From an uncultured archaeon (GTDB lineage: Archaea; Thermoplasmatota; Penumbrarchaeia; JASLWR01): a stretch of 64,000 nt of DNA. The stretch is taken from contig CAYFHS010000004.1 in the NCBI GenBank assembly GCA_964342815.1, positions 17,238 through 81,237 on the forward strand, read 5' to 3'. The notes under the pieces were generated by a model that saw only the letters and a program-made list of their open reading frames with translations, did no database searches and was not told the origin of the DNA. A program made the position numbers and the translations under genes. Below are positions 7,443 to 22,664 of this stretch, piece by piece (the stretch's first letter is position 1; each line of letters opens with the position of its first letter).

Positions 7443-7443
7443 A

Positions 7444-8532
7444 ATGATTTCACTTTCGGGGGTATCATCGACGATATATGACGCTGTAATAATTGGGGCG
7501 GGACCGGCCGGATCGTCTGCAGCGAAAGTGCTCGAAGACAGTGGATTATCTTATGTACTGGTGGACAAGAAAAAATTTCCACGGAACAAGCCGTGCGCAG
7601 GAGTTCTTTCCCCCAAGATACTGTCGTTATTGGATATTCCTCACGACGTGATCGAAAGACCTCTCGTGGGTTACCGGGTATTTTCCCCCGCAGGAAGAAT
7701 TGTGGAATCATCCTTCCCGGAGCATGGTTTTATTGTTCAGAGGACCGAATTCGATACGTTTCTGGTACGCTCCCTGGCAGCAGAACCGGTCCGGCAAAAG
7801 GTAACTCAAATCAAAGACAACGGTGACCATATCGAGATACGAAATGACCAATGGAGCTGCACGGCAAGATTCGTAATCGGCGCCGATGGGGCCAATTCGG
7901 TTGTGAGACGATACTGCGGCATTCACGCAAAACAGGTTGCAGCGGCCGCCCAATGCGTTGTTCGACTACCTGCAAACGCCATCGATGAACGAGTGGGGGA
8001 CTGGTTCGAAGTTTATTATACGCTGCACCACGGTTACGGGTGGATCAGCCCCATGAAGGATTTATTACGGATCGGAGTTGGTATTGTTACCGGACATCTC
8101 ATAGGGAATATCAAAGGAGTACTTGAAAAATTTATGGCAAGTTCGCCGGTACGGGAGAAATGGGAGGGTGGAGAAATTGTTGGAAGAGAAGCGGCTTCCA
8201 TCCCCATGTCCGGGCCGTTGGATCGTGTGACACGACCGCGAATACTTCTCTGCGGGGATGCCGGCGGTTTTGTCTATCCGGGGACTGGTGAAGGTATATT
8301 CTATGCTGTCAAGACCGGTAGGATCGCGGCCGAGTTAATAAGCCGGCTCTGTCAGGAAGAAGGTATCGATACGGACCTGCTGGAGAAAACCTACTCGAAT
8401 GAGCTTGAAAAAAACGGATTATTTGCACTGCGTGACGTGGATTTCACCGAGAAAAATTTATCCAGCACCGAAAATGCCGAAAAATACGTTCGGCGCCTAG
8501 CTCACATCGTCCGGGCTCGCTCCGTCCCTTGA
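7444..8532 (+). CDS. Geranylgeranyl-reductase-family FAD oxidoreductase (DGGR-like or LipT-like)
   Basis: YDAVIIGAGPAG, KPCAG, GADGANS, GYGWISP, GDAGGFVYPGTGEGI. Real start is probably the ATG at 7444, 1 bp after the dapL stop; the ORF-track extension to 7228 overlaps dapL. Confidence 0.85.
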   Translation: MISLSGVSSTIYDAVIIGAGPAGSSAAKVLEDSGLSYVLVDKKKFPRNKPCAGVLSPKILSLLDIPHDVIERPLVGYRVFSPAGRIVESSFPEHGFIVQRTEFDTFLVRSLAAEPVRQKVTQIKDNGDHIEIRNDQWSCTARFVIGADGANSVVRRYCGIHAKQVAAAAQCVVRLPANAIDERVGDWFEVYYTLHHGYGWISPMKDLLRIGVGIVTGHLIGNIKGVLEKFMASSPVREKWEGGEIVGREAASIPMSGPLDRVTRPRILLCGDAGGFVYPGTGEGIFYAVKTGRIAAELISRLCQEEGIDTDLLEKTYSNELEKNGLFALRDVDFTEKNLSSTENAEKYVRRLAHIVRARSVP

Positions 8533-10107
8533 TCTTATTATTCCAATTACTTGGGTCAATAATTCAGTATTCAGGTGTGTCTGTCCCTCGAAATCACCCA
8601 ATTTTGCCTCTTTTGATTTGCCCAGGTCATAGCAGGTCTCGCTGTCGATATCCACTATCACCCCGGGCACCCCCGCTTCTTCGAAATCCTCTATGTGTTT
8701 TACATAGAACGCCTCGCAGCAGCACCCTACAAACGAGCTTACACCTTCGTCCTTCATGTGGCGAAGAGTGCTTATCAGGTCTTCAAAATTCAATATGGTT
8801 ATAGGGCTCATATCGTTTACGCCTGCGAGTTCGTAGCCTTCACCTATACTGCATCCCCCGCATGGGTCGCAATCCTTCCGGATCCTGTAATCACATCCCA
8901 CAAGCTTGGAGCAGTAGGGAAGTAGCAGTACCGAAGGCTCGGCAATCTCGGCGAATGGGTACAGTACCGTAAAAATCCTGTTGACGTTCTCTTGGGAGAT
9001 TCCCAGCTCAAGATAATCGATCTTTTCGATAGCCTTGTCCAAAGCCTTGAAAAAATCCAGTGGTTTGACGCCAGGTATCTGGATTTCTCTATTAGCGAAA
9101 AAATCATTTATTAAAATTTCTAAATCCCCCTTGACGAGAGACGCGTCCTTCAGCAGTCCCTCAAGGTCGAAGATTGTTCGTTTGGGATATGCAAAGAAAT
9201 CTCCGGTGATAAGAGCGGCCTGGATCCGACGGTTTGGGATATCCGCAACCAATGATACACGTATTAGCCCCCCGGGCGCCTTGTGGACCGATCTCAGCAC
9301 CTGTCGGTGTTTCATGGGCCTGCGAATACCGTAGACCCACTTGTCCGATTCATAATATTTTAACTTCTCGTTGAGCATTTCTTTTTCCGGCAGACTCAAT
9401 TCTCTTTTCGTGAATTCAACGTCGAAAACTTCCGAAAACCCTTCCGCGAGAGCCGACTTAATGTTCTCCATCTCCGGCAGGTAACCCAGTTCCCATTTCA
9501 GGCAGGTCACTCTTTCTCGTACGGATTCCAGTTCCTTGTCCTTCAGTTTCTCGATGGGTATCCTCAGCGATCGCAGCATGGTGTCAACATCGAAATCCGT
9601 TAAAAGAGTTCCCTGGAAAAGAAATGCACCACCCTCGAAGGCCCCGCCGGTTCCGGATATCTTTCTTCCATTCACCTCGATATCGTTCTTGGGACGAAAT
9701 TCGGCTTTTACGCCGAGTTTTTGGAGTCCCTTCACGGTGCCTCGACACAGTTTCTCGTAAAGCTCGTCCACCTTTTTCGGAATGCTCGGCTGAGCTCTGG
9801 AAGCGATCAGTTCCCAACCGAGCTGCGGTCCGTCCAGGTAAATGGCCCCGCCGCCGGTGATCCTCCTGTTGATATCGATTTTATTCTCCTTACAGTAATC
9901 GATCCGCACCTCCTGCTCGGTGCTCTGATGAAATCCCACGAGGACCGCATTTGGAGAAAATTGAAGAAATCTCAAGGTATTCGGGATAATATCCCTGTTC
10001 CTGCACTTCAGCAGAACGTCATCCAACGCGGAATTTTCGGCAGCGCTTCTCACCCCGGTATCAAGCAGCGTCCAGGTTTCCATGACATCACTGTTCTCGA
10101 CCTTCAA
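8497..10107 (-). CDS. lplA: Lipoate-protein ligase (LplA catalytic plus C-terminal domain) fused to Cys-rich DUF116 domain
   Basis: RRITGGGAIYLD, KNDIEVNGRKISGTG, FQGTLL, ITGDFF. C-terminal LLLPYC..C..CDPCGGC..GCCCE..TCY matches my recollection of DUF116. Confidence 0.85.
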   Translation of the reverse strand: MKVENSDVMETWTLLDTGVRSAAENSALDDVLLKCRNRDIIPNTLRFLQFSPNAVLVGFHQSTEQEVRIDYCKENKIDINRRITGGGAIYLDGPQLGWELIASRAQPSIPKKVDELYEKLCRGTVKGLQKLGVKAEFRPKNDIEVNGRKISGTGGAFEGGAFLFQGTLLTDFDVDTMLRSLRIPIEKLKDKELESVRERVTCLKWELGYLPEMENIKSALAEGFSEVFDVEFTKRELSLPEKEMLNEKLKYYESDKWVYGIRRPMKHRQVLRSVHKAPGGLIRVSLVADIPNRRIQAALITGDFFAYPKRTIFDLEGLLKDASLVKGDLEILINDFFANREIQIPGVKPLDFFKALDKAIEKIDYLELGISQENVNRIFTVLYPFAEIAEPSVLLLPYCSKLVGCDYRIRKDCDPCGGCSIGEGYELAGVNDMSPITILNFEDLISTLRHMKDEGVSSFVGCCCEAFYVKHIEDFEEAGVPGVIVDIDSETCYDLGKSKEAKLGDFEGQTHLNTELLTQVIGIIRSRDGASPDDVS

Positions 10108-11150
10108 AGGCTCCGCTCGAAGTCGCCTGAATAATCAAATAATTGCTGTCTGATGGTGTCGATATCGGATTTTTCCGGAAAAAAGGCAAAGTTCCTTATG
10201 GGGCGTGACGGGCGCTCGTTGCCGTAAGGCCTGTTACAGGCCACCACCCCGTCATGTCCGGCGCAACCCGATGTCATGAACGCTTCTCCAGATTGGATCA
10301 CACTCTCTACTTCACCGGCAAATTCCAATAGTTCACCCTTATCGCTGAACTTCATATCTTCTGCCCGCTGAATTCCGGAGTTTATAAGGTATCGGGCCAG
10401 CTGAACGCGTCGGTACTGGCCGTAGGAAGGCTGTTTCCAGTTCGACATGGAACTCCCCCCTTCGGGATAGAATGAGAAAAGGTGGGTTTTCGCTCCCCGG
10501 TCCTCTCCTTTCTGAATAATATAAATCATCTCTTTTTCAGTCTCCCCAAGGCCCACGATGAGATGTATTCCCGCCTTTCCTTTTCCGAAACATTCAGCGG
10601 ACCATTCCACCACCTTCCAGTAATGATCCCATTTGTGCGGGCCGTTAACCCCCTCACCCCTGAACTTGCGGAAAAGCTCCCGGGTAGCGGCGTCCACTGC
10701 GATCCCAACCATATCCGCTCCCGCCTCCTTTATCTTCATGACCTTTTCTCTGGAACGTATCAGCGTGGGTGCGATCAAACCGCTTATCAGGAGATCCGTC
10801 TGGTCGCGAAATTTCTTCATGATAGTGCACATGTCCTCATATGCCCTTGGGTGGGTGATCATGGATATGCAAACCCTTCCCAGGTGTTTGCCGTACTTTT
10901 TCGTTCTAGCGAGGATGTCCTCCATGGAAACGATGGGCCAGTCCACTCGAATGAAAGTATTCTCATCCGGATCCCTGGATTGCGAAAGGCCGCAGTAACC
11001 GCAATTTCCCCTGCAGCTGTCATCGTACACCACCAGGAGATTCAATGCATTGAGGCGCTCACCTCGATTGAAACGCCCGGGGAATATTTTCAATGTCATG
11101 GCGGCGGCGGTACTGATCTGCACGTAATCCGGACTTTCTTTGCTACTCAT
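10104..11150 (-). CDS. lipS2: Radical SAM protein, LipS2-type lipoyl synthase subunit
   Basis: CRGNCGYC radical-SAM motif. C-terminal TSGCAG..ACNRPYGNERP resembles the LipS2 TxGCPxCNRP motif. Flanked by lipoate ligases and an H-protein-like gene. Confidence 0.8.
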   Translation of the reverse strand: MSSKESPDYVQISTAAAMTLKIFPGRFNRGERLNALNLLVVYDDSCRGNCGYCGLSQSRDPDENTFIRVDWPIVSMEDILARTKKYGKHLGRVCISMITHPRAYEDMCTIMKKFRDQTDLLISGLIAPTLIRSREKVMKIKEAGADMVGIAVDAATRELFRKFRGEGVNGPHKWDHYWKVVEWSAECFGKGKAGIHLIVGLGETEKEMIYIIQKGEDRGAKTHLFSFYPEGGSSMSNWKQPSYGQYRRVQLARYLINSGIQRAEDMKFSDKGELLEFAGEVESVIQSGEAFMTSGCAGHDGVVACNRPYGNERPSRPIRNFAFFPEKSDIDTIRQQLFDYSGDFERSL

Positions 11151-11586
11151 CCTCTTCCACCTTTTTTATTTCTTCGGAGATCCATTTCAGTATCTTCTCC
11201 TCATTATCAAGAATATATTCGGATTCGTCATCAAGTATTGACGAATCGGGTTTAACAGCAAATATCCATGAATCATAGGGATCTTCATTGATCTTTCGGG
11301 GATTTTTTATTACTTCTTCGTTTACGGCAACGATCTCACCGTCCGTGGGGGAATATATTCTGCTCACGAATTTCGCCGACTCGAAGCTGCCAACAGATTC
11401 ACCCACTTTTACCCGGCTTTCGTTCACCGTGAGAAAGGTCAGATAACCTGCGTACTCCACTAGAAAGGCATCCATCCCGATCTTTATAAGCTCATCCTCT
11501 TGTTTCAACCATATGTGGGCTCCGTCCCTGGTATAATATACTCGATCCAATGGAAAATTCATTCCGTTTATCTCTACCACACTCAT
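11143..11586 (-). CDS. Glycine-cleavage H-like lipoyl carrier protein
   Basis: HIW, KIGMD, ESAKFVSRIYSPTDGEIVAVN, INEDPYDSW with the lipoyl Lys conserved. GGAGGT RBS before the ATG at 11586. Confidence 0.88.
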   Translation of the reverse strand: MSVVEINGMNFPLDRVYYTRDGAHIWLKQEDELIKIGMDAFLVEYAGYLTFLTVNESRVKVGESVGSFESAKFVSRIYSPTDGEIVAVNEEVIKNPRKINEDPYDSWIFAVKPDSSILDDESEYILDNEEKILKWISEEIKKVEEDE

Positions 11587-11670
11587 ACCTCCTTCCGCAG
11601 GAATCCTTTTCAGGTTATTTTCATCCATTTTTCTTTCCCGATAGTATATTGGGCATTTATTATTTTCAGT

Positions 11671-12660
11671 TCAAATATTTTTATTATTCATCATATCGGT
11701 AACGATCTCGATGATCTTTCGGCAGTCATATTCGAGGCCGATCAGTTCATTTTCCAGCTCGTTTCGGTTAACGGTAACGTGTTTACAGGAATTATCTATC
11801 AATATCTTTTCAACTTTGTCACCCGATATTTCGAAAGTAATTCCCAGATCACCCCGATCGCCTGGAAAAATATGATGAAACAGGTACTCTCCTTCCCTAA
11901 CCTTGATCTCCCGGCCAAGCTGCTTTACACCCCTTTGGTACATCCACCGTTCAGATGAATAGTGTTGATCCAGTTCCTTCATCTTTTCGCTGACCGCAGC
12001 GTCCATTGTCCCTTCGGCCATGTGGCCCAATAACTTGGAAAATTTTTCAATCAGTAATGAATAGATTTTTTCCTTCGGTGGAATGTATCCAAGTTCTTCC
12101 CGAACGGTTGTAAGATTTATTTTCATCTGCTCGATATACATTTGTTTTAACTTTCCGCCGCATTTCAATGCCCTTGCCATGGTTTCACGATCGAAATCAA
12201 GCATTATACCCCCTGCCAGCACCCTGCAGTTCCCGATCTCCCCTCCGCCGTTGCCCGATATCTTTTTTGTACCCACCACAAGATCGCATATAGGGCGGTA
12301 AACTGCTTCAATTCCTATCTCTCTCATTGTCTCGGTTACAGGCTGGAGGAATTTTCTGAAAAAATTCTCGGGTATCTTCGGAACACCTTCCCGGTCTCGC
12401 TTCAGAATCAGATTGAAGAATATCTGTCTCGAGTCCAGCAGCACCGTACCGCCGCCGATCTCCCTTCTGAATATACCAATATCGTTATCCTTGCAGTATT
12501 CAAAGTCGATCTCATCCCGGGGGTCCTGGTGAAGACCAAGTGATACGTATCTGCCACCCGGGGAATCCAGCACCAGCCCCTCCATGTCCAACAGGGCCAT
12601 GGCGTGGTATATCAGCTGGGTCTCTTTCCAGTTGGTTTCACCGAGATTATAATATTTCAT
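11671..12660 (-). CDS. Lipoate-protein ligase family protein (resembles sLpl(AB)-type ligases)
   Basis: YNLGETNWKETQLIYHA, RREIGGGTVLLD, DLVVGTKKISGNG, GGIMLDFD. Confidence 0.85.
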   Translation of the reverse strand: MKYYNLGETNWKETQLIYHAMALLDMEGLVLDSPGGRYVSLGLHQDPRDEIDFEYCKDNDIGIFRREIGGGTVLLDSRQIFFNLILKRDREGVPKIPENFFRKFLQPVTETMREIGIEAVYRPICDLVVGTKKISGNGGGEIGNCRVLAGGIMLDFDRETMARALKCGGKLKQMYIEQMKINLTTVREELGYIPPKEKIYSLLIEKFSKLLGHMAEGTMDAAVSEKMKELDQHYSSERWMYQRGVKQLGREIKVREGEYLFHHIFPGDRGDLGITFEISGDKVEKILIDNSCKHVTVNRNELENELIGLEYDCRKIIEIVTDMMNNKNI

Positions 12661-12684
12661 TCATTGACCCCGTAATAAAGAAAT

Positions 12685-12810
12685 TTATTTTTTTTTCTTA
12701 GCACCAAACAATTTTCTTTTGATCCTGCGGTAATTCATTACTATCAAACATATGAGGCAGTAATAACCGCCCATGCAATCTCGGCCGCATCGATAAGGCC
12801 TGTAGCTCAT
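12685..12810 (-). CDS. Small Cys-rich protein, 41 aa (not in ORF track)
   Basis: Manual translation MSYRPYRCGRDCMGGYYCLICLIVMNYRRIKRKLFGAKKKK. GGAGA RBS-like sequence upstream (alternative ATG at 12816). Co-oriented, with its stop 24 bp before the ligase start. Confidence 0.5.
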   Translation of the reverse strand: MSYRPYRCGRDCMGGYYCLICLIVMNYRRIKRKLFGAKKKK

Positions 12811-12984
12811 TTTCATATCTCCATGATGTTTTCGGCGGATATTTCAGTATTACCTATTCATATTAGAAATTCATGTCTGGTAACTATGTCTGTCGATCCG
12901 GATGCTCTATGAATTTTCTGCGTGTGCTTATCCCGCTAAATCCCTTTTCAAAATAATCCACTTGTTATTAAAGTTCGAATTATC

Positions 12985-13866
12985 TTAAAAGTAAGTCTGA
13001 ATTATAGTATGTGCAATGAATCCCAGGTTTATCAGGAACATGGCCAGCATCACCATACCCAGCGAACGGCCGCATTTCATGGGAGCTATGTCATTTTTTA
13101 TGGATAACTGGCTGAACAATAAGGTTGCTCCACCAAGTATTGCAAAGACCAGGAAAACAATGCTCATCTCAAGCAAAACGAACAACCAACCCAGCGCCCC
13201 GATGGTGAGGAGCGCGAAAATGAAGCCGATGCTTGCCAGACGTTCCCTACCCATGAGCACCCCGAAGGTATTTGGTGAATACAGTTTATCCCCCTCATAA
13301 TGCAGTATATTTTCCGGAACATCCAGGCACATTTCCCAGAAGAACACGAAGGCAAATAATCCAACCATGATCCAGTCGAAGGGAGCCAGAGCGATCCATA
13401 CTCCCACCGGTATGAGAGCCGCGGCAAGACTCAGCAGGAAATTATGTTTGTACCATGCTGCATATATTATCATGATCAATATACATGCGCCCTGTATCGA
13501 CGTGCTCAACGGGTCCTGAAATGCTATCCACCATAGTGCAATACCTATAACGATCATCACGATGGAGAAGACGTATGCGGACCTGGGTGACACTCTTCTC
13601 GAGGGCAGAGGTCGGGCCGCATTCACAATTGAATCTTCACGGATACCTATCCAGTCATTCAGTACGTAGATCCCGGTGACCGAAGCCCAGTATCCCACAG
13701 CCCAGATGACGGTATTGAACCGTAAGAATTCTTTCATTGATCCGTCATCCCTAGTGAATATTGCCAATAGACCAGGTACCAGACCGATAAAGAAACATGC
13801 CAGCCACCAACCGGGCCTCAGGAGCTCAATGTATGCGACAAAACCTTTTTTCCCTTCTTCTGCCAT
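12985..13866 (-). CDS. UbiA-family prenyltransferase with degenerate Asp-rich motifs
   Basis: ELLRP, LNDWIGIRED..N..RPLPS, EMCLDVPENILHYEGD, TFGVLMG; multiple hydrophobic helices. Confidence 0.82.
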   Translation of the reverse strand: MAEEGKKGFVAYIELLRPGWWLACFFIGLVPGLLAIFTRDDGSMKEFLRFNTVIWAVGYWASVTGIYVLNDWIGIREDSIVNAARPLPSRRVSPRSAYVFSIVMIVIGIALWWIAFQDPLSTSIQGACILIMIIYAAWYKHNFLLSLAAALIPVGVWIALAPFDWIMVGLFAFVFFWEMCLDVPENILHYEGDKLYSPNTFGVLMGRERLASIGFIFALLTIGALGWLFVLLEMSIVFLVFAILGGATLLFSQLSIKNDIAPMKCGRSLGMVMLAMFLINLGFIAHTIIQTYF

Positions 13867-14027
13867 ATTATCCCTTTTCAATCAAATTTATATGTTTGTG
13901 TAATATGAAATCAAACCCTACTTCGACCATTGGGCATGAGTTTACAGTAAATAACCTTTTCGAATATTTCGTAAAAAAATGATTATTCATCATAGTTTTT
14001 ATGTTGTATTCTATTATGGTTGGATAA

Positions 14028-14947
14028 CTACAACGCGAGAATTCCTGCATTATAAAACAGCAGCGAACCATTCCCTATAAACAAAAAGATCGATAAAACC
14101 AGAATTGCAAAATAACCTCCCTTGAAATCCAATCGGCGTAAGAAATATATGTAACTTACGATCTGGGCAATTGCTATGGGTACGGCCAATGGCAGGAACT
14201 TCATGTCCACGATATAATCCATAAAACACATTAGAAGGACCAGCGACGAAGCGATGGTGATACATGCCACGCCCATATAATAGACCTTTTTTTCCCGAAA
14301 CGGACCGCTATTGTGCTAATGTTCTCGCTGATGTCGGGTTCATAATCGATAATGGTGGTTGGCATGTATATCGCCCCCACCCCAAAAAAACTTATGAAGG
14401 CCCACAAAACTGGAAATTCGTTAATGGGTTTGATGATGGTCCACCCTGCGAGAGTACATATCACCCCGGCACCGATGGCATTTGTGAGAAAGTCCAATAC
14501 GGGTCTCTCCTTCAATCTGAAAGGGGGGGCTGAATAAAGGAACGAAAGGATTATACAGCTGAGAATGAAGAGGAGAAATAACATGGAGATGAAAATGGCT
14601 ACCAAGCATGCGATAAAAAAGAAGAAAAGGGATACATACAATATCGATCTCGGTTTCAGAAGACCCCTTATCAACGGCAGTCCCACCTTTCTTCGATTAC
14701 CGGTATCATAACGGGCGTCCCAGTAATCGTTAAGAAGTATTGTGGCATCGCCCAGAAAAGGCCCGATGGCAATGATACTGGAAATAAACAACCATAATCC
14801 GGAGTATGCCGGAAGAATCCTCTTTGAGGCTAGTGACCAGCCAATATAGAATGGCATTATGGAAACACCCCAGAAGAGAGGTGCCATTTGCCTGGTATAC
14901 CGTCGTATAATCTGAATTGGACTGAGTAAGGTATTTATCAAAGTCAT
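14028..14947 (-). CDS. UbiA-family prenyltransferase, frameshifted at an A7 tract (14287-14293)
   Basis: LLNDYWDARYD, YSAPPFRLKERP, IIDYEPD..TIAVRFG. One extra A joins ORF 14231..14992 to ORF 14028..14276 (FGKKKVYYMGVACITI...). Confidence 0.78.
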
Positions 14948-14972
14948 AATTATCCGATTGTATTTTTGTTGA

Positions 14973-15194
14973 TTAGATGGATTTGGCAACAATATCGGTG
15001 ACGTCCATTATGTTCATTCTGAACTTTTCACCTTTCTTTTTCATCTTTTCCTTCTTCAACTCCACCGCAATTCCCATCTGGGCTTTACAATTCGGGCAGC
15101 TTGATACAAAGGTTTTTGCTCCGAGTTCTATCGCCTCTTCGATCTTGCGCGCAGAGATATCGGTACTCAGATCATAATTTACCGCCTTGCGCCC
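14973..15194 (-). pseudogene. C-terminal fragment of a CCG-domain (HdrD/GlcF-like) protein (not in ORF track)
   Basis: Manual translation GRKAVNYDLSTDISARKIEEAIELGAKTFVSSCPNCKAQM...IMDVTDIVAKSI*, the typical end of a CCG domain. In-frame TAG upstream at 15195-15197 and no start codon. Confidence 0.8.
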
Positions 15195-15289
15195 CTATAC
15201 TCCCGAATACCCCCCAGGTCAGACTGCACCTTGCTGATTATTTCGTCCTCGTCTCTGTATATTTCTATGGATACCAGCGATTCTTCCAT
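15179..15289 (-). pseudogene. Short, probably truncated hypothetical ORF (36 aa)
   Basis: GGAGG RBS, then MEESLVSIEIYRDEDEIISKVQSDLGGIREYRGARR*. Runs into the CCG fragment in another frame. Confidence 0.45.
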
Positions 15290-15439
15290 GTAAGCCCTCC
15301 TTTACAGCTTTCAAGCATTGGTCATATGTTTATTGGTCATATGTTTGTAAATTTTTTATTATACTAATGTAGTATTTTCATTTTTTGGTTATATTCAAGA
15401 TTTTCCAACCAATGTATTGTTATTTTCGGGGCTGGCATT

Positions 15440-15633
15440 TTCACCTACTTTCTTGTGAACGGGTATGGATTCTCCGGTCACCATGGATTCGTCCACATAG
15501 CTCTCGCCAGATATAATCTCCCCGTCAGTGGCGTATCGCTCCCTGGTTTCACCATCACCACACCCCCCACCTCGATGTTCTCCATTAGAATTTTCATTTC
15601 CGCCTCGTTCCTGATGACGATGGCTGTGAAAGC
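15440..15633 (-). pseudogene. Remnant of a P1B-type heavy-metal ATPase actuator domain (CopA/ZntA-like)
   Basis: TAIVIRNEAEMKILMENIEVGGVVMVKPG, then a frameshift, then ERYATDGEIISGESYVDESMVTGESIPVHKKVGE. No transmembrane or catalytic domains. Confidence 0.8.
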
Positions 15634-15654
15634 AAGAACAATGTATGGACCCTC

Positions 15655-18600
15655 TCAAGAATATCGGCCCTTCTCTTTCATGACCTCATATAGCAATAAC
15701 TTTTGAAGTTTCGGATCATCTTTCGAATCATACCTGATATTGCAGTTCGGGCAGGAAGGATCGTCCTCATATATCACCGCATCACATATGAAACAATGAT
15801 ATTCGATTTCACATTTTTTCTCCAATATCTCGAAGTCATAATACGGCTTGACGTAACGACCAGTACCCTTGGGAATTTCCCCGGTTGGTGAATCCGAATT
15901 CTCCTCCCTTTCATCAGATTCAAATCTCATACCACAGTTGGGACAAAAATCCATTCGTTCTTCAACCCCACTATCACAATAAGCACAAAAGTATTCCAAT
16001 TCAACACCGTCATCTGTCCCGGTGGCATCCTCATGCTCCTCCTTTATTCCCACAGCGACATCATCTTGTTCATGCTCTTGCGGTGCCTCCTGCTCCTGGT
16101 CCTGCGTCGGTGCTTCCTCTATTGCCCCGGCATCGGGTGCAACAACCACAGCATATTCCCCGCTCTCCACAACGGTCCCATCAGGTCCAACCACAGAAGG
16201 CGATCTCTCTTTCATCTCGGCTTCCAACTCTTCGAGATCCAAGACCATCAGGTCCAACTCCCGGACAACCTCCGAATAATTACCTTCCTCAAGTGACATC
16301 TTGCTCGAGAGTAGCCTTTCCCGAAGTCGAACGGCACGGGAGTCCTTTTCATCAGCAAACCGTTCAAGTCGTTCCTCAACACCACCTATCTTTCCAGTAT
16401 AGGGGGTCTTTTTCCATTTTTTCCTTTTCGCATCAAGTGACATCTCAATACCTTTCAGGGTACCCACTGCTTCCAGGTACTTCTTTTCATTCATAAGTCC
16501 CTCAATCATGGACAGGAATTCTTGTTCCACCTGGACATCTTCATTCAACCGGACTGCCTCATTTATGGCTTCAAGGACCTTTTCGATACCATCCTCCAAA
16601 ACCTCCCGGAGTTTATCTTTCACTCTGTCCTTCAACTTATCACTTTTCAGCGTTTCCAGAACAATGACCGGTTCTCTTTCTCCCACATCCCCGGGTCCCA
16701 CGTCAACAATGTCAATATCCCCTTCCTCCACATCTTCGAGAACTGCCTCTCCGATGGCTTCAACATTAGTCCTCTCCAAAGACCTTGACCTTTTCCGGGG
16801 CCTGAAAATAATCAGCATAACGAGTAATGCCAGAACCAGCATAACCACTATAATGATCACATAATCGTTTCCGGTATCCCCTGAGCGTACATCAGTTGAA
16901 ACATCTATCTCATGGAATTCCACAACGGGATTTCCATTCTCATCCTCTCCATTGTAGACCACCAGCACATCAACTTTCCCGTCTCCATCTGTGTCTATGG
17001 TGACCATCTGACCCAGCCTGACCTCTACGCTCTTTGCCTGGTCAATATCAATGGTCACACGATAAGGGGTTGATGTGGTCACCAGCACCTCCATCACATC
17101 CCCCCCGACCTGAACATCCCGGGGAACATCTTCAAGGAAGGTCATTTCTGTTGTTTCCTGGGGTTCATCGGGTTCAGAAACCCCTATATCATGAAGCTCA
17201 TCAAGTTCCCTTTCGGTATATGGCGACATCAGAAGGGCCGATTCCTCCTCGGGCCACCAGGTGACATTCATAGGAGTCTCGATATCTATGGCAATGACTC
17301 CCTCTCCAATTGTATATGCTATCCCCTCCAGCCTTCTTTCCAAAGTCCATACATAGTTCCCCGTCTCCACGGGCATCTCGAAAGTCGCCACCCCTGTATT
17401 ATCCGTCATGGCAGAATAGGTTCTAAAGGTTCGGGTCGATGTCTCAAGTTCCAGAACAGCACCAATGATGGAGGTCCCATCAGCCCACATGAATGGCCCA
17501 AGGGAAAGGCCCGTCACCTTCATACCAATGACGGTCACCTGGAGATGATCGCATCCCCACATGCCCGCCTCGTCCCACACGGTGAGGGTGATGTTATATA
17601 TTCCGCAAATGTTGAAGGTGAAGAATGCTTTCATGCCGTGAAGGACCACCGGACTGTTGTTGTATTCAAAGGTCCAGACATAGGAAACTATTCCCACATC
17701 ATCTTCACATCCCCCTCCATCAAGGATAATCACACTTCCCACCTCAACCTCCATATCCAGGCCGGCCATCGCCGTTGGAAAGACAATGTCATTCACAGTG
17801 ACCATGAGCCAGTCAACATGCCCATTCCCCGAACTATCCTCAACATACAATAGAATATTGTACACCCCTGGAATATTGAAGGTATAATTCACCGATTCAC
17901 CCTGGAGTGTTATAATATTATCATCATAGATGAATGTCCAGGTGAAATTCACTATTCCCACATTGTCCAGGCTTCCCCGGGCACTGAGAGCCACCGTTTC
18001 GAACTGGTTCACCTCCACATCCTCACCTGCATCTGCAAAAGGGATGGTTATATCCAGCACGTTGACGGATAGGGTCCCCGATGAACGGTGGCTTGCCATG
18101 TCCTGGATCTGAAGGGTGACCCGGTATACTCCAGGTATGTCAAATCTGTAATCCCAACATTCGCCGTAAAGTGTGATCTCTTCATCATTGTATTCAAAGG
18201 TCCAGGTGTGATTGGCAATGATTCCTGGCTGGGGGTCTGAACATCTACTCCCATTCAACAGGACAAGGGTTCCTTCATCCACAGTGATATTGTCTAGAAC
18301 CACCATGGGAGATGCCGTATCCACCGCCACCGATGCCTGTCCCCACATGGGTCCACCCTCCACATTGCCCGAATGGTCCCTGCTCCTTGAACAGAACTCG
18401 TAGATACCATCGCCATCGGGAACACTGAAGTTCCATTCATACGGTGGCAAAGCATCTGGTCCGCCAAAAGGCATCCAGGGTTCCCACGTAATATTGTCAA
18501 GAGAATGGCGGTAAAGGAGCTCAACCTCAAAAATACCCGTTCCCACATCACCTCCATTCACAGAAATGTTGAAATGACCTGACTGCCAGTATGGTGACAA

Positions 18601-19992
18601 GGAGAGCACACTGGAAACGGGTGGTGCAAACTCGTTCCAGGGATGGAAATTGACATAGTCGCAAACATTATCGCCCTGACCCTTGGCATTGTATATCGAA
18701 TGAAAGGGTCCTGTATCATCACCCCACCAGTTGTTCGTGCCATTCAATATCCCCGTCCCCTCGTTCCTCATACCAAAAAGAGTATTGTTGTCAAGAGTAT
18801 TGTTCTCTATTAATATTCCATCACACCCGGTGATTCCACCCTCCTCCTGGGACCGCTTGCAAATATGAATGCCAATATCATTGTCGGTTATTTCATTGTT
18901 TGAAATATAAATATTGCAGTTCCCACCCCCACCTGTTCCATTCACACCCGAGGTGTCATCGAATTGTATTCCTGCCGTACCTTTGGATAGAACATTTTCC
19001 ATCACGGAAATATCCCTCATCAATGGCATTCCCGACATACCCTGATGTTTTCGGAGCTTCAATCCCCTCTCGGCACCGGTGACGACATTTGATGTGATGG
19101 ATATATTACCAAGGATCGGGGCGCCCACAGGCTCACCGTGTCCAGTGCAGTTCAGATTGATGGCCCACAAATAGATGGCGCCCCAGCTGAAAGGACCTGT
19201 GATATCATTATCCGATATGCTCACACCGTCCACCACGGCAGCCAGAGACGTGGAGGTGTGGGCCTGGAGAAGAATTCCCATATACGGATGAGTATGTGAC
19301 GCGGTGGCGATGACGTTATTTGATATGGTAGAATTGCAGACATTGGTGAGTTCCAGACCTGCCCAAATGCCATCGGTGTGATCAACAACATTGTTCCTGA
19401 CAGTCCAGTTATTAAAGATAGTCCCTGCGCAGTTCCCCACGAGTATCCCATTGTAACTGAGGTTGTGCATGTAGTTATCCTTTACTACGATGTTGTGATT
19501 TGGTGCATCATTCCATGCACATATGGCACACCCCCTGTCACCACCATAATTTTGAAACTCGAACCCTTCCACAGTGATATTGGAAACCCCTCCCTCGAAC
19601 ATGATCGCCTTTCCCTCGGCCCCACCACCATCAAGGACCGGGGCAGAGGGTCCTGGACCCGGGGTGATATCACCAGGGTCGCCCCGTAGTGTCAATTCCC
19701 GGTCTATTGTGATAAATTCATCGTATATACCCGACTTTACAACAATAGTGTCCCCGTTGCTTGCGTTATCAATGGCATCCTGAATGTTGTTGAAATCAGC
19801 AGGACCATCATCATCAACAGTGATGGTAGCCCGGGTAAGACCTGTGGGGCCTTCCGGACCTGGGACGGGTGATGATTTTCCATTATGAAGGGCAACACTG
19901 ACATCGTCGGTGGATAATTCCAACTGGACCATCCCAAAAAATGTGTTTGCCAGCAGGGATGCAACCAATATCATCATGAATATTCTTGCCAT
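15655..19992 (-). CDS. Large surface protein: beta-helix (NosD/CASH) plus 3 PKD domains, single TM and cytoplasmic tail with two Zn ribbons
   Basis: Signal peptide; VDDDGPADFNNIQDAIDNA; N-rich beta-helix repeats; AGxD..S.DNVGI..YTWTF PKD repeats; TM YVIIIVVMLVLALLVMLII; CAYC..CPNC and CFIC..CPNC. Confidence 0.82.
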   Translation of the reverse strand: MARIFMMILVASLLANTFFGMVQLELSTDDVSVALHNGKSSPVPGPEGPTGLTRATITVDDDGPADFNNIQDAIDNASNGDTIVVKSGIYDEFITIDRELTLRGDPGDITPGPGPSAPVLDGGGAEGKAIMFEGGVSNITVEGFEFQNYGGDRGCAICAWNDAPNHNIVVKDNYMHNLSYNGILVGNCAGTIFNNWTVRNNVVDHTDGIWAGLELTNVCNSTISNNVIATASHTHPYMGILLQAHTSTSLAAVVDGVSISDNDITGPFSWGAIYLWAINLNCTGHGEPVGAPILGNISITSNVVTGAERGLKLRKHQGMSGMPLMRDISVMENVLSKGTAGIQFDDTSGVNGTGGGGNCNIYISNNEITDNDIGIHICKRSQEEGGITGCDGILIENNTLDNNTLFGMRNEGTGILNGTNNWWGDDTGPFHSIYNAKGQGDNVCDYVNFHPWNEFAPPVSSVLSLSPYWQSGHFNISVNGGDVGTGIFEVELLYRHSLDNITWEPWMPFGGPDALPPYEWNFSVPDGDGIYEFCSRSRDHSGNVEGGPMWGQASVAVDTASPMVVLDNITVDEGTLVLLNGSRCSDPQPGIIANHTWTFEYNDEEITLYGECWDYRFDIPGVYRVTLQIQDMASHRSSGTLSVNVLDITIPFADAGEDVEVNQFETVALSARGSLDNVGIVNFTWTFIYDDNIITLQGESVNYTFNIPGVYNILLYVEDSSGNGHVDWLMVTVNDIVFPTAMAGLDMEVEVGSVIILDGGGCEDDVGIVSYVWTFEYNNSPVVLHGMKAFFTFNICGIYNITLTVWDEAGMWGCDHLQVTVIGMKVTGLSLGPFMWADGTSIIGAVLELETSTRTFRTYSAMTDNTGVATFEMPVETGNYVWTLERRLEGIAYTIGEGVIAIDIETPMNVTWWPEEESALLMSPYTERELDELHDIGVSEPDEPQETTEMTFLEDVPRDVQVGGDVMEVLVTTSTPYRVTIDIDQAKSVEVRLGQMVTIDTDGDGKVDVLVVYNGEDENGNPVVEFHEIDVSTDVRSGDTGNDYVIIIVVMLVLALLVMLIIFRPRKRSRSLERTNVEAIGEAVLEDVEEGDIDIVDVGPGDVGEREPVIVLETLKSDKLKDRVKDKLREVLEDGIEKVLEAINEAVRLNEDVQVEQEFLSMIEGLMNEKKYLEAVGTLKGIEMSLDAKRKKWKKTPYTGKIGGVEERLERFADEKDSRAVRLRERLLSSKMSLEEGNYSEVVRELDLMVLDLEELEAEMKERSPSVVGPDGTVVESGEYAVVVAPDAGAIEEAPTQDQEQEAPQEHEQDDVAVGIKEEHEDATGTDDGVELEYFCAYCDSGVEERMDFCPNCGMRFESDEREENSDSPTGEIPKGTGRYVKPYYDFEILEKKCEIEYHCFICDAVIYEDDPSCPNCNIRYDSKDDPKLQKLLLYEVMKEKGRYS

Positions 19993-20025
19993 TTCATCAC
20001 CAAATATTAACCTTGAAAAATATCA

Positions 20026-20100
20026 GAAAATACCTTGATATTAAACCCGGAAAATACCTTGTAAAATAATTTATGGAAGTGGTAATATATTAAAATACCT
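20026..20100. promoter_or_regulatory. Direct repeats GAAAATACCTTG upstream of the 1445-aa gene
   Basis: Perfect 12-mer at 20026-20037 and 20050-20061, with a partial AAAATACCT at 20092-20100. Confidence 0.45.
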
Positions 20101-20189
20101 AAATTATTTAAAAAGTATTTACCATTGACCCACAATTTCACATCTACCTGATAACTTGCCAATGTACCATCAAGGGTGTACTTCATTAG

Positions 20190-20600
20190 AATATACTTGT
20201 ACATATTAATGGTATTTTCAGGAGGATCAATTCCGTTTTCAACCATCCATTTACGTATCTCTTCCCAGTATTCATGGAAAGGAATATCAACGTGACAAAT
20301 AGTCTCACATCGGCTGCAAAGTGTGCAGGTAAATATCTTCGTCATTGCCTCTTCAAGAGAAATTTTCCCTTTCCCGGTGAGGATATCGGCTATCTTTTTT
20401 CCCAGTATTTTATCGAGGAAACTGTTCTTGCTGATGAGATGTTTTAAAAGATACACCTTTCCCCGGGGGGTGAATGATTCCCAACCGGTTTCGCGGTATA
20501 TTGGACAAACAGCCTTGCAGTATCCGCATTGCAGACATGCATAGATGTCATCAAGATGAGGGGGCTTATTTCGAACGAGATCTATTTTCTCCTTTCCCAT
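20190..20600 (-). pseudogene. N-terminal 2x[4Fe-4S] part of an HdrD/GlcF-like protein, truncated
   Basis: CLQCGYCKAVCP, TPRGKV, CTLCSRCETICH. After PPENTINMYKYI the frame reads through AT-rich promoter DNA to a stop at 20007. CCG domains are missing here. Confidence 0.8.
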
Positions 20601-20611
20601 AGAGAGTCTCC

Positions 20612-22165
20612 TTACTTTTTTCCCGATTTTTTCGCTTTGGTTCCAACCTTATCTGCCAGCATCAACCTTTTCGCTATCGCCATAACATCCATTCCTATAT
20701 TCAGGGCGAAGCCGGGAACCGGTATGCCAAAACGGGTTGAATTTTCAATGAACTTTCCGGGATTCATTATGTAATGGGGATCTATTGCGGATTTAAGGTC
20801 ATCCATTAAGTAAACTCCTTTCCCCTGGATCTTCTTGAGGTTGCCGCTGAACAGCATACCGAATCCTGCAGGCCGGCCCCCCATTTTGAATGCTGCATCG
20901 GTTAATTTCTTGACCAATGCCATAGATACCATCCCCTTGATGAGTTTGTGCTCGTTGGGAATTGCATAGGTCATAAATAAAGCCGTATTCGGATCAACCA
21001 CAGTGCCAACCACCGCTCCATTCATCTTCAGTTTTTTCAGAACACGCGCTGAGCGTTTTGCCATTTCGCCGAATTTTGAGATCGGACAGAAACTTTCGCC
21101 AAGGATGAAACCGGGACCAAGACGCCGAGATCTAGCTTCGAAGTATCGCTCACTCCATTCATGGTCGGCAAACTTTTTCTTCTGTTTTACCCCACCATTC
21201 TCTTTTATGATCTTGTCTGCGATCTTTTCCTCGATATCGATTATCTTGGTGTTGCCGCTATAAACGACACTGATGACGGCCCCCACTTTCGGTGCATCTT
21301 TTTCCAGCTTCCGCATCAAGTCGAAATGCGGTCCGTCAAGGAAAGCTATGTGATATGGAGTAATGTCGCTTCTCGTCAGAGCGTTTATCGCATCATTTGC
21401 CTTTTCTAGGCTGGGAAATACAAAAGCAGTAGGTCTAATCTCTTCCGGGGCAGGGAAGATTTTCAGAGTTATCTTGGTCAGGACCGCAAGGGTTCCCTCC
21501 GAACCAACGAGCAACCGGGGAAGGTCGTATCCCGAGGAGTTGCTCATAATGTTCTTGCACCCGGAGGAAACAATGGTACCATCGGGCAACACGAATTCCA
21601 GAGATCGGATGAGGCTGTCTATCCCGCCGTATTTATATGACCCGATTCCCACGCCGCCTGTATTCACCCACCCACCAATGCTCGCACCGGGAGCGCTGCT
21701 TGGATGGGCCGCCACCAATAAGCCCTTGACCAAAAACTTATCGTAAAGGGATTTCCAGTTAACCCCCGGTTCCACCGTAACGAAGAGATCTTCCTTGTTG
21801 ATTTCCAATATCTCCTGCATGCCGTCCATATCCAGAACAATCCCGCCAAATGCCGGAACTGCGCCTCCAAACGCCCAGGAAGCCCCTCCTCGAGGAGTCA
21901 CCGGAATATTTTCCTTCGTGGCAAGCTTCATAATACGGGATACATCCTTGACGTTGCGGGGCTTAACCACCACGTCGGGAACAGTTTTAAACATCAAGGA
22001 CATTTCTTTAGGCAATGGGGCAAGATCATGACTGTAGAGAATGCGGTCAAGGTTAGTTTCACTAACGTTCTTCTCACTCACAATTGATGCTAATTTTTTA
22101 TATAATTTGGAGTTTGATCCCGTTTTTTTGGAATTGTCCGATTCAATCTTCGTTTCATCTGACAT
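20612..22165 (-). CDS. FAD-binding oxidoreductase, VAO/PCMH (GlcD/D-LDH-like) family
   Basis: PDVVVKP, PVTPRGGAS, VEPGV, SIGGWV, LVGSEGTLAVLTKITLK, IDPHYIMNPGK. Confidence 0.88.
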   Translation of the reverse strand: MSDETKIESDNSKKTGSNSKLYKKLASIVSEKNVSETNLDRILYSHDLAPLPKEMSLMFKTVPDVVVKPRNVKDVSRIMKLATKENIPVTPRGGASWAFGGAVPAFGGIVLDMDGMQEILEINKEDLFVTVEPGVNWKSLYDKFLVKGLLVAAHPSSAPGASIGGWVNTGGVGIGSYKYGGIDSLIRSLEFVLPDGTIVSSGCKNIMSNSSGYDLPRLLVGSEGTLAVLTKITLKIFPAPEEIRPTAFVFPSLEKANDAINALTRSDITPYHIAFLDGPHFDLMRKLEKDAPKVGAVISVVYSGNTKIIDIEEKIADKIIKENGGVKQKKKFADHEWSERYFEARSRRLGPGFILGESFCPISKFGEMAKRSARVLKKLKMNGAVVGTVVDPNTALFMTYAIPNEHKLIKGMVSMALVKKLTDAAFKMGGRPAGFGMLFSGNLKKIQGKGVYLMDDLKSAIDPHYIMNPGKFIENSTRFGIPVPGFALNIGMDVMAIAKRLMLADKVGTKAKKSGKK

Positions 22166-22235
22166 AATAACTCATTCTCCCGCTAACGATAGAAAATAGA
22201 TAAAATCCAAGGTTATTTTTGGAAAATAACTGACT

Positions 22236-22664
22236 TTATAATAGCGCTTTCTTTTCCGCGATTTCTTTCTTCATCCAGCTTTCGAATCCAGGTCCGGTTT
22301 TCATTAGATTGCCCAGTTCGTCATCGAGGTCTTCGGGGCTGATCTTCAAAATCCATCCTTCTCCATAGGTGTCTTCGTTTATCAAACTCGGTTCGTCTTC
22401 CACATCCTCGTTAACCTCATCGATCTCTCCACTTATCGGTGAGTAGATCTTTCCGGTCCATTTTCCGCTGCTGATGGTTCCCAATGGTTTGTTCTGGGAA
22501 ACTTCATCCTCTTCCTCCAGCGTGATGACACGCTTGATGGTTCCGGCCATTTTCTGGGCAAAATCAGTAACGCCTACCACAACAAGGCCATCTTCGACAC
22601 GAGCCCAGCAATGTTCCTTATGGTAATACAAGTCGTCAGGGAAATTATATTCGTCGATTTTCAT
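22236..22664 (-). CDS. Glycine-cleavage H-like / LbpA-like lipoyl carrier protein
   Basis: YHKEHCW, VGVTDFAQKMAG, ISSGKWTGKIYSPISGEI, INEDTYGEGW with the lipoyl Lys conserved. Confidence 0.9.
   Translation of the reverse strand: MKIDEYNFPDDLYYHKEHCWARVEDGLVVVGVTDFAQKMAGTIKRVITLEEEDEVSQNKPLGTISSGKWTGKIYSPISGEIDEVNEDVEDEPSLINEDTYGEGWILKISPEDLDDELGNLMKTGPGFESWMKKEIAEKKALL

Follow-up and report, generated by a model that had tools for sequence, protein, structure and literature searches.

The window analyzed here, a stretch of 64,000 nucleotides from a Thermoplasmata metagenome-assembled genome (MAG), carries ten co-oriented genes on its minus strand (8497-22664) in which two lipoyl carriers of the GcvH family (H1 and H2) and genes for lipoylation lie together with a GlcD-like flavoprotein (GlcD*), an HdrD-like iron-sulfur protein and two UbiA-family proteins. 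The cluster is conserved in relatives, where such carriers recur beside proteins with CCG domains, and by analogy with sHdr-LbpA or DsrC-DsrK we give even chances to the reading that the lipoyl carriers are dithiol/disulfide substrates of the CCG enzymes. The copy in the window is itself a decaying version of this conserved Thermoplasmata cluster, and the system is non-functional at this locus. The window spans positions 17238-81237 of contig C4 of a 4.35-Mb MAG (116 contigs, 88.9% complete) labeled G000; other G-numbers denote other genomes, L-numbers loci, and C-numbers contigs of G000. Genes were called from the listing of open reading frames (ORFs) and from Pfam and NCBIfam scans of the window, which confirmed each of the ten genes in the order given by a preliminary description of this DNA. 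The features are as follows:

H1, GCV_H lipoyl carrier: 22236-22664, minus strand (PF01597, 120 bits)
GlcD*, oxidase linked to flavin adenine dinucleotide (FAD), ORF intact: 20612-22165, minus strand (PF01565 and PF02913, FAD_binding_4/FAD-oxidase_C)
HdrD/TfrB-like N-terminal remnant, residues 1-137 with two 4Fe-4S motifs: 20190-20600, minus strand (Fer4_8 and Fer4_17 only)
Unrelated replacement DNA, 4,995 bp: 15195-20189, minus strand (Pfam; matches end at its borders)
HdrD-like C-terminal remnant, residues 348-420: 14976-15194, minus strand (85% identity to residues 348-420 of the L017 orthologue)
UbiAa, UbiA prenyltransferase split over two frames: 14028-14992, minus strand (PF01040)
UbiAb, second and divergent UbiA-family protein: 12985-13881, minus strand (PF01040)
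Four-cysteine peptide ORF of 43 amino acids (aa): 12685-12816, minus strand (position kept in relatives)
Lpl1, lipoate-protein ligase with catalytic and accessory domains: 11671-12660, minus strand (PF21948; TIGR00545 covers residues 39-325)
H2, second GCV_H carrier: 11143-11628, minus strand (PF01597, 87 bits)
LipS2-like radical SAM protein: 10104-11150, minus strand (NF053743, 230 bits)
Lpl2, LplA+LplB+DUF116 fusion of the sLpl(AB) type: 8497-10107, minus strand (PF21948, NF053749, PF01976)
GGR, geranylgeranyl-reductase-family flavoprotein and LipT candidate: 7228-8532, plus strand (TIGR02032, 215 bits)

The cluster consists of two modules. The first, module A, is a lipoylation island with two carriers and comprises H1, the 43-aa cysteine peptide, Lpl1, H2, the LipS2-like protein, the sLpl(AB)-DUF116 fusion and the convergent LipT-like gene. 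Module B is a redox and prenyl cassette that comprises GlcD*, the HdrD/TfrB-like protein, UbiAa and UbiAb, and it sits between H1 and the peptide gene. The LipS2-like gene shares 8 nt with H2 and 4 nt with Lpl2. The GGR gene, which probably starts near 7440-7480, runs toward the cluster from the other strand and extends into the 3' end of Lpl2.

Species-representative genomes were scanned with a GlcD* alignment, which yielded 48 loci from Thermoplasmata and Methanomassiliicoccales MAGs that were then mapped by tblastn with proteins of the window and its relatives. The order H1-GlcD*-HdrD-UbiAa-UbiAb-small ORF-Lpl1-H2-LipS2-like-Lpl2/DUF116, followed by the convergent GGR, is identical in L024 and L025, and L023 shows the same order as far as the end of its contig. 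In L024 and L025 the HdrD-like gene is intact (427-433 aa), and genes for CcsA, cytochrome b and a multihaem cytochrome c (divergent) are found ahead of H1. The gene overlaps in L024 (GlcD*/HdrD, Lpl1/H2 and H2/LipS2-like) fit one operon. A search for the same gene order in relatives, as the preliminary description had proposed, thus found the genes co-located, with the order intact in at least three other Thermoplasmata species (L023-L025). The order of the cluster is more than chance, and its genes form a conserved unit in relatives.

The same components are also joined in other arrangements. In L019/L022, from a closed genome (CP070751.1), the order is GlcD*-HdrD-UbiAa-UbiAb-small ORF-Lpl1-H2-74-aa ORF-HdrC-HdrB-giant HdrA, and in L017/L018 the same HdrABC set lies divergently upstream of GlcD*. 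Two loci (L035 and L040) have GlcD*-HdrD-H-HdrC-HdrB-HdrA together with an Lpl gene, and three (L030, L031, and L060) have GGR-H1-GlcD*-HdrD-UbiAa with a second set of HdrD-GlcD-cytochrome b-cytochrome c upstream. H1 is divergent from HdrC-HdrB-HdrA in G012, and G040 has H1-Lpl-H2-LipS2. Cytochrome c-cytochrome b-GlcD*-HdrD-UbiAa is the order in L049 and L051, and likewise in L039 in a different orientation; L053 and L057 have cytochromes and GlcD* (L057 also HdrD) as far as the contig end, and the more distant GlcD*/HdrD pairs stand alone. The N-terminus of the cytochrome c resembles quinol dehydrogenases of the NrfH type. In the giant HdrA, a GltD-like part is fused to HdrA; the protein is split in G000, where it comes with NuoE- and NuoF-like parts, which points to an NAD(P)H-linked HdrABC-like complex. 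Altogether, H-like carriers are linked to HdrD-like and HdrB-like CCG proteins in at least four gene arrangements. This repeated, rearranged co-location of surplus carriers with both kinds of enzyme is the strongest evidence for the lipoyl dithiol/disulfide as their substrate.

The carriers are surplus in the sense that the glycine cleavage system is encoded elsewhere with a GcvH of its own. The preliminary description had reported a window devoid of gcvT, gcvP, lpd and 2-oxoacid dehydrogenase genes, and our scans likewise found no gcvT, gcvP, E2 or Pyr_redox_dim within it. Elsewhere in G000 we detected gcvT-gcvH on C18, gcvPA/PB on C25 and three Pyr_redox_dim candidates, while no E2 gene was found in this genome. 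Since a separate canonical gcvT-linked GcvH is present, H1, H2 and a third carrier (H3) are surplus paralogues. The ORF that contains the canonical gcvT is 1232 aa long, has two GCV_T-domain matches and is directly followed by gcvH (L075, C18:53720-57835); a long gcvT form (1240-1263 aa) also occurs in two closed relatives. Five closed relatives encode 2-5 GcvH-family genes each, and four of the five have a full gcvT.

H1 bears its lipoyl lysine in the motif SSGKW, and both the lysine and SSGKW.GK are invariant in 15 orthologues. Its score is above the cut-off for PRK01202 (125 versus 117) and below that for TIGR00527 (106 versus 115.85). H2, which probably starts about 14 codons downstream of the ORF start and has orthologues of 146-148 aa, shows the motif ESAKF with the lysine conserved and falls under both NCBIfam GcvH cut-offs (TIGR00527, 74.5). 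H3 is a second copy of H1 (76% identical, G000:C4:94395-94820) that keeps both the lipoyl lysine and SSGKW; the corresponding motif of canonical GcvH is VEAVKAS. H1-type proteins are acidic like GcvH, and H2-type orthologues are less so. Orthologue alignments of H1 and H2 contained no conserved cysteines, and a search for solved LbpA structures among their relatives gave GcvH entries only. H1 and H2 share the fold and the lipoyl lysine with GcvH, and H1 passes an NCBIfam GcvH subfamily cut-off (PRK01202), but they differ in the lysine motif and lie away from gcvT and gcvP, which are on other contigs with their own GcvH. H3 adjoins genes for an NrfH-like multihaem cytochrome c and cytochrome b (L071, G000:C4:91654-109160, 10-28 kb past the window end), the same neighborhood as that of H1 in relatives. 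This locus also holds, 3-14 kb from H3, a large minus-strand operon with the order HdrC-HdrB-HdrA/NuoE-NuoF-Fer2/HdrA-MvhD-like-AsrA/B-like.

The flavoprotein of the cassette is atypical. The best solved relative of GlcD* is mouse LDHD (8jdb), matched over the full length with an E-value of 2e-49, and its TIGR00387 score of 208 is far under the cut-off of 568. Compared with LDHD, the active-site segments HvGDGNfH and GEHGIG are replaced by TVVDPNTA and AGFGMLF, respectively. GlcD* thereby lacks the His/His/Glu metal ligands and the catalytic histidine (H..DGN.H and GEHG), and the same holds across 14-24 orthologues and a paralogue on C21. Across these orthologues GGRPAG and HEWxER show little or no variation, and both motifs are also present in the C21 paralogue. 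The two-domain FAD fold and the pairing or fusion with an Fe-S/CCG subunit are shared with GlcDEF glycolate oxidase, LDHD and YdiJ, but the replacement of the metal ligands and the catalytic histidine (TVVDPNTA and GGRPAGFG) extends to the whole GlcD* subfamily. GlcD* thus belongs to a conserved subfamily and is no ordinary hydroxyacid dehydrogenase.

Intact orthologues of the HdrD-like protein have two ferredoxin-type [4Fe-4S] motifs and two CCG motifs, with all ten cysteines invariant in 23 orthologues. The best NCBIfam match is TfrB (158 bits), followed by DsrK (92 bits) and GlcF (82 bits). TfrB is the thiol-oxidizing subunit of thiol:fumarate reductase and has a flavoprotein partner. Natural GlcD*::HdrD fusions of about 900 aa occur among the paralogues, which shows that the two proteins work as one enzyme and are wired directly. 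The preliminary description had placed the lipoyl carrier between the flavoprotein and the CCG protein, which is unlikely given these fusions; for the carrier, a role as a substrate that comes to the pair from outside is more probable. Its wider idea that the lipoyl dithiolane acts as a protein-bound electron carrier fares better, as the carriers are repeatedly linked to CCG proteins, the flavoprotein is atypical and TfrB is the nearest family. One fusion is encoded by G000 itself (L072, G000:C21:40906-45812). It is an intact protein of 903 aa, also without the hydroxyacid metal site, and is followed by an 88-aa cysteine-rich ORF, a 271-aa ORF and a UbiAa-like gene, with a CcsA-like gene upstream. 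It is possible that this fusion is a functional stand-in for the broken copy in the window.

UbiAa has the Asp-rich motifs NDYWDARYD and DYEPD. The first Asp-rich motif of UbiAb reads NDxxGxxED, a variant that is conserved in seven orthologues; the second Asp of this motif is replaced in UbiAb and all its orthologues. UbiAb may therefore be a non-canonical or non-catalytic partner of UbiAa. No UbiA subfamily could be assigned, as all NCBIfam scores were far below the cut-offs and the protein atlas gave generic UbiA clusters only.

In the mechanism that we propose, the HdrD-like subunit would act at its CCG (non-cubane Fe-S) site on the lipoyl arm of H1 or H2, and HdrB would act on the same arm in the HdrABC-like complexes. 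Comparable pairs of substrate and enzyme are coenzyme M (CoM)-S-S-coenzyme B (CoB) with HdrD/HdrB, thiols with TfrB, DsrC with DsrK and LbpA with sHdr. The [4Fe-4S] clusters would conduct electrons into or out of the FAD of GlcD*, and GlcD* would turn over a second substrate other than a 2-hydroxy acid; at other loci, membrane cytochromes would accept or donate the electrons. The UbiA pair might supply a prenylated membrane component for the membrane link. In G000, the carriers and ligases are still intact and presumably serve glycine cleavage, the HdrABC/NuoEF-like operon found on the same contig at a distance of 60-70 kb, or the intact GlcD*::HdrD fusion on C21.

This proposal has precedents in well-known systems. 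HdrDE, TfrAB and DsrMK(JOP)-DsrC also have an HdrD-type subunit with 2x[4Fe-4S] and two CCG motifs that handles thiols or disulfides. There, the partner is a flavoprotein (TfrA) or cytochrome b with periplasmic haem c (HdrE; DsrM/DsrJ), and the DsrC disulfide is protein-bound. In contrast, the substrate proposed here is lipoyl-lysine rather than CoM/CoB or the cysteines of DsrC, and the flavoprotein has the VAO/GlcD fold and not that of a fumarate reductase. That a lipoyl protein can be the partner of Hdr-like enzymes is established in principle by sHdr-LbpA (Cao et al. 2018, PMC6067878). What the cluster has in common with sHdr-LbpA and sLpl(AB)-LipS1/S2-LipT is extra GcvH-like carriers, own ligases, LipS-type radical SAM proteins and a GGR-like LipT beside CCG proteins. 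On the other hand, here no DsrE/TusA is nearby, shdrC1B1AHC2B2 is absent and the carriers are devoid of LbpA-type cysteines. Moreover, the partner is a GlcD-like flavoprotein with an HdrD-type protein and UbiA, the ligase carries DUF116, and the cluster has no LipS1. The lipoyl group of GcvH has also been suggested as the disulfide for HdrB-type enzymes in the Ehe/HdrA2B2C2 cluster of Culexarchaeia (PMC9723716). Both cases feature a GcvH gene beside HdrB-type genes in a non-methanogenic archaeon, but Culexarchaeia belong to a different phylum, the partner there is a [NiFe] hydrogenase, and no lipoylation genes, GlcD-like protein or UbiA were reported. In the searched literature we found no description of the cluster, of a GlcD subfamily without the metal site, of the ligase-DUF116 fusion or of a role of DUF116 in lipoate assembly, and two Thermoprofundales genome papers do not mention these genes. 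The preliminary description called the system undescribed, which within this literature is correct for the cluster itself, but the idea of GcvH as the disulfide (PMC9723716) and its principle (PMC6067878) are not new.

The lipoylation half of the cluster corresponds to the published sLpl(AB)/LipS/LipT pathway plus two non-canonical GcvH-family acceptors. The layout lipS1-slpl(AB)-lipT-lipS2 and LipT itself were described by Tanabe et al. 2023 (PMC10332631). The same layout was found in three sampled loci from bacteria and Bathyarchaeia (L076, L077, and L078), in the form radical SAM-Lpl/DUF116-GGR-like-radical SAM, and in the window, too, the ligase adjoins a LipS2-type radical SAM gene and a GGR-like LipT. 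Because the GGR gene directly follows Lpl/DUF116 in bacteria and Bathyarchaeia in this published layout, we consider the convergent GGR a LipT candidate; its convergent position is the same in L024, L025, and G001. More than 500 proteins share the LplA-LplB-DUF116 fusion, and they come from groups that include Thermoplasmatota, Bathyarchaeia, Chloroflexota and Syntrophaceae. DUF116 itself is cysteine-rich (residues ~370-536 of Lpl2), and its fusion to ligases in lipoate-type clusters makes it very probably part of lipoate assembly. The LipS2-like protein of the window scores 230 bits against NF053743, less than the cut-off of 270, while a paralogue on C50 is above it (284 bits). The cluster contains no LipS1, and LipS1-like proteins are encoded on C46 (224 bits) and C44 (200 bits; cut-off 230). 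Lpl1 and Lpl2 are the only LplA-type ligase genes found in G000, and we therefore rejected the idea that the ligase set of the window is exclusive to H1 and H2. The preliminary description had called the lipoylation machinery dedicated, but it is probably not exclusively so, given that these are the only two ligases found in a genome that has a classical glycine cleavage system elsewhere.

The 43-aa peptide contains four cysteines (C-x3-C-x5-C-x2-C) and a basic tail, with the pattern M..YRPYRCGxDCRGGYYCLICL... L018, L022-L025, L039 and G001 carry it at the equivalent position (59-81% identity). This place, between UbiAb and Lpl1, is kept in at least seven genomes, and in G001 the peptide has outlived the cassette.

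At the locus in the window, the HdrD-like gene is broken. The closest relative is L017 (GlcD* 88% identical), whose intact 421-aa HdrD-like orthologue matches the window in two pieces only, namely residues 1-137 (92% identity, 20600-20190) and residues 348-420 (85%, 15194-14976). At the DNA level, nt 1-411 of the L017 orthologue correspond to window positions 20600-20190 and nt 1042-1260 to 15194-14976. Hence, 630 nt (~210 aa) of the gene, with the cores of both CCG motifs, have given way to 4,995 bp of unrelated DNA. The insert that the preliminary description had placed at 15195-20190 thus has boundaries that are exact by the DNA match to L017, but it is a replacement and not a simple insertion. 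The N-terminal fragment retains two ferredoxin-type [4Fe-4S] motifs (CxxCxxCxxxCP and CxxCxxCxxxC), and its ORF reads on through unrelated sequence to 20007. The C-terminal remnant, with a stop codon just upstream, translates as ...GRKAVNYDLS...SSCPNCKAQ..., so that the last CPNC alone survives of the second CCG motif. No CCG domain (PF02754) was detected at this locus, the twelve matches of a whole-genome search being all elsewhere. The CCG protein of the window is a pseudogene, and without both CCG cores the locus is unable to encode the complete system. UbiAa is also affected, as residues 1-222 and 217-306 of its L017 orthologue match in two different frames. DNA comparison with L017 traced this to a 1-nt deletion after an A7 run at ~14286, which may be a true frameshift or a sequencing (homopolymer) error.

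The replacement DNA is single-copy in the genome at the DNA level and missing from every orthologous locus. It carries an ORF for a 1445-aa PKD/zinc-ribbon protein (15655-19992, minus strand) and a dead 87-aa fragment of a P-type ATPase (15395-15658). The 1445-aa protein combines PKD repeats with a transmembrane segment, an acidic coiled region and, at its C-terminus, two zinc ribbons; G000 encodes a very large number of PKD proteins. An origin of the 5-kb replacement from a mobile element found no support, as it has no terminal direct or inverted repeats, no insertion sequence features, no second genome copy and no plasmid match.

A sister species has lost the cassette altogether. G001, a genome of the same genus that is 93% complete, shares the flanks of the locus, with a helix-hairpin-helix (HHH) gene on one side and aminotransferase and DapF genes on the other. 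It keeps H1 (93% identity), the small ORF, Lpl1, H2, the LipS2-like gene, Lpl2/DUF116 and the convergent GGR, but window positions 12880-22235 are reduced to ~345 bp, and GlcD*, HdrD, UbiAa and UbiAb are cleanly gone. A GlcD* query matched only a 29% paralogue in this genome. Ancestrally the cluster was complete, as it still is in L024/L025, which means that G001 has lost the four cassette genes jointly and that in G000 they are in decay. Their joint loss shows that GlcD*, HdrD, UbiAa and UbiAb behave as one cassette. Conversely, H1, H2 and the lipoylation genes outlive the cassette in G001 and must have a use independent of the GlcD*/HdrD pair.

Several of these observations weigh against lipoyl carriers as substrates of the CCG enzymes. 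H1, H2 and all lipoylation genes are intact in G001 after loss of the cassette. Lpl1 and Lpl2 would be needed for glycine cleavage anyway, so their presence is explained without GlcD*/HdrD. GlcD*/HdrD pairs often have no H-like gene within 10 kb (for example L032, L050, L055, L056, L058, and L059), and the same is true of the cytochrome c-cytochrome b-GlcD-HdrD-UbiA loci. GlcD* keeps the W..R segment, which in LDHD-type enzymes binds the substrate carboxylate and fits a small anionic substrate better than lipoyl-lysine at the flavin. Furthermore, GlcF, GlpC, SdhE and LutA are CCG proteins that work as electron or quinone modules with no known disulfide chemistry, and G000 has an Etf-multihaem-HdrD-like cluster of this plain electron-module kind. 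Finally, the lipoamide couple, at about -290 mV, is a poor high-potential acceptor for NADH-driven bifurcation by HdrABC-like complexes.

Many of these points would be accounted for if the two modules were unrelated neighbors. GlcD*/HdrD/UbiA would then be an independent substrate:quinone (or cytochrome) oxidoreductase in which the CCG protein passes electrons to a prenylated quinone made by UbiA, and its adjacency to the lipoylation island would reflect shared regulation or chance insertion. This explanation draws on the sole LplA-type genes being those of the window, on the classical glycine cleavage system of G000 and on the clean loss of the cassette from an otherwise preserved island in G001. 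It would also fit the Lpl/DUF116-LipT-LipS clusters that stand alone in bacteria and Bathyarchaeia, the many loci with GlcD*/HdrD alone or with cytochromes and UbiA, and the analogous Etf-cytochrome-HdrD-like cluster on C46. This last cluster (L073, G000:C46:10029-19932) encodes EtfB-EtfA (with a ferredoxin domain), a regulator, a multihaem cytochrome, an HdrD-like CCG protein and OsmC, and adjoins a LipS1-like radical SAM gene, which is another link between a CCG protein, a cytochrome and a lipoyl-synthase-like protein. However, at least four arrangements, spread over several species, place H-like genes beside GlcD*/HdrD and beside HdrCBA, and with 2-5 GcvH-family genes per genome such recurrent linkage is hard to reach by chance. 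In addition, the second LipS2 (above the cut-off) and the two LipS1-like genes elsewhere in G000 make the window set look like an extra set, and GlcD* has no hydroxyacid active site. We consider unrelated neighbors unlikely.

An improbable alternative, suggested by analogy with the mycobacterial UbiA-type phosphoribosyltransferase and DprE1, is that the cassette is biosynthetic. The UbiA enzymes would make a polyprenyl-linked intermediate (a lipid, glycan carrier or quinone precursor), the VAO-type flavoprotein would oxidize it, the HdrD-like protein would be just the electron outlet and the carriers would be bystanders. UbiAa does follow GlcD*/HdrD in almost all arrangements, including the fusion locus on C21, and the four genes were lost jointly in G001; the missing hydroxyacid site of GlcD* and a weak match of its FAD domain to DprE1 (37 bits) would fit as well. 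Yet the matches to DprE1 and alkyl-DHAP synthase are confined to the FAD domain, while the best full-length match is D-lactate dehydrogenase. The linkage to multihaem cytochrome, CcsA and HdrABC-like genes points to energy metabolism, and the UbiA family scores, all far below the cut-offs, allow no substrate to be assigned. Least probable of all is sHdr-like sulfur handling, with the H-like carriers as LbpA-type arms that take sulfane sulfur to Hdr-like enzymes in sulfur oxidation or reduction, since despite lipoate-binding proteins, an sLpl(AB)-type ligase, LipS and LipT beside Hdr-like genes, which are the sHdr hallmark (PMC6067878, PMC10332631), no DsrE/TusA was found in the Pfam-annotated neighborhoods of L017, L019, L020, and L021, one HdrC-HdrB pair with a giant GltD-like/NuoEF-linked HdrA takes the place of shdrC1B1AHC2B2, and H1 and H2 are without conserved cysteines.

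Lipoyl carriers as dithiol/disulfide substrates of CCG enzymes bear on a wider question. Anaerobic archaea and bacteria without the ability to make CoM and CoB abound in Hdr-like (CCG) enzymes, and for few of these is the thiol/disulfide substrate known. In the non-methanogenic Thermoplasmata studied here, which are relatives of Methanomassiliicoccales, lipoylated GcvH paralogues might be the long-sought 'heterodisulfide' of Hdr-type enzymes, cycling between cytoplasmic HdrABC-like complexes linked to NAD(P)H and ferredoxin and membrane- or cytochrome-linked GlcD*/HdrD, with prenylated carriers made by UbiA and with their own ligases and sulfur-insertion enzymes, a broader scheme that we put forward as tentative and on balance doubtful. 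The window and its sister species catch a redox cassette in the middle of its loss, which reveals genes that act as one functional unit. Also defined in this study are a GlcD-like subfamily without the hydroxyacid site, a widespread ligase-DUF116 fusion and a conserved 43-aa cysteine peptide. The conserved linkage among surplus lipoyl carriers, maturation enzymes, and HdrD-like and HdrABC-like proteins provides a concrete, testable candidate substrate for Hdr-like enzymes in a globally abundant sediment lineage.

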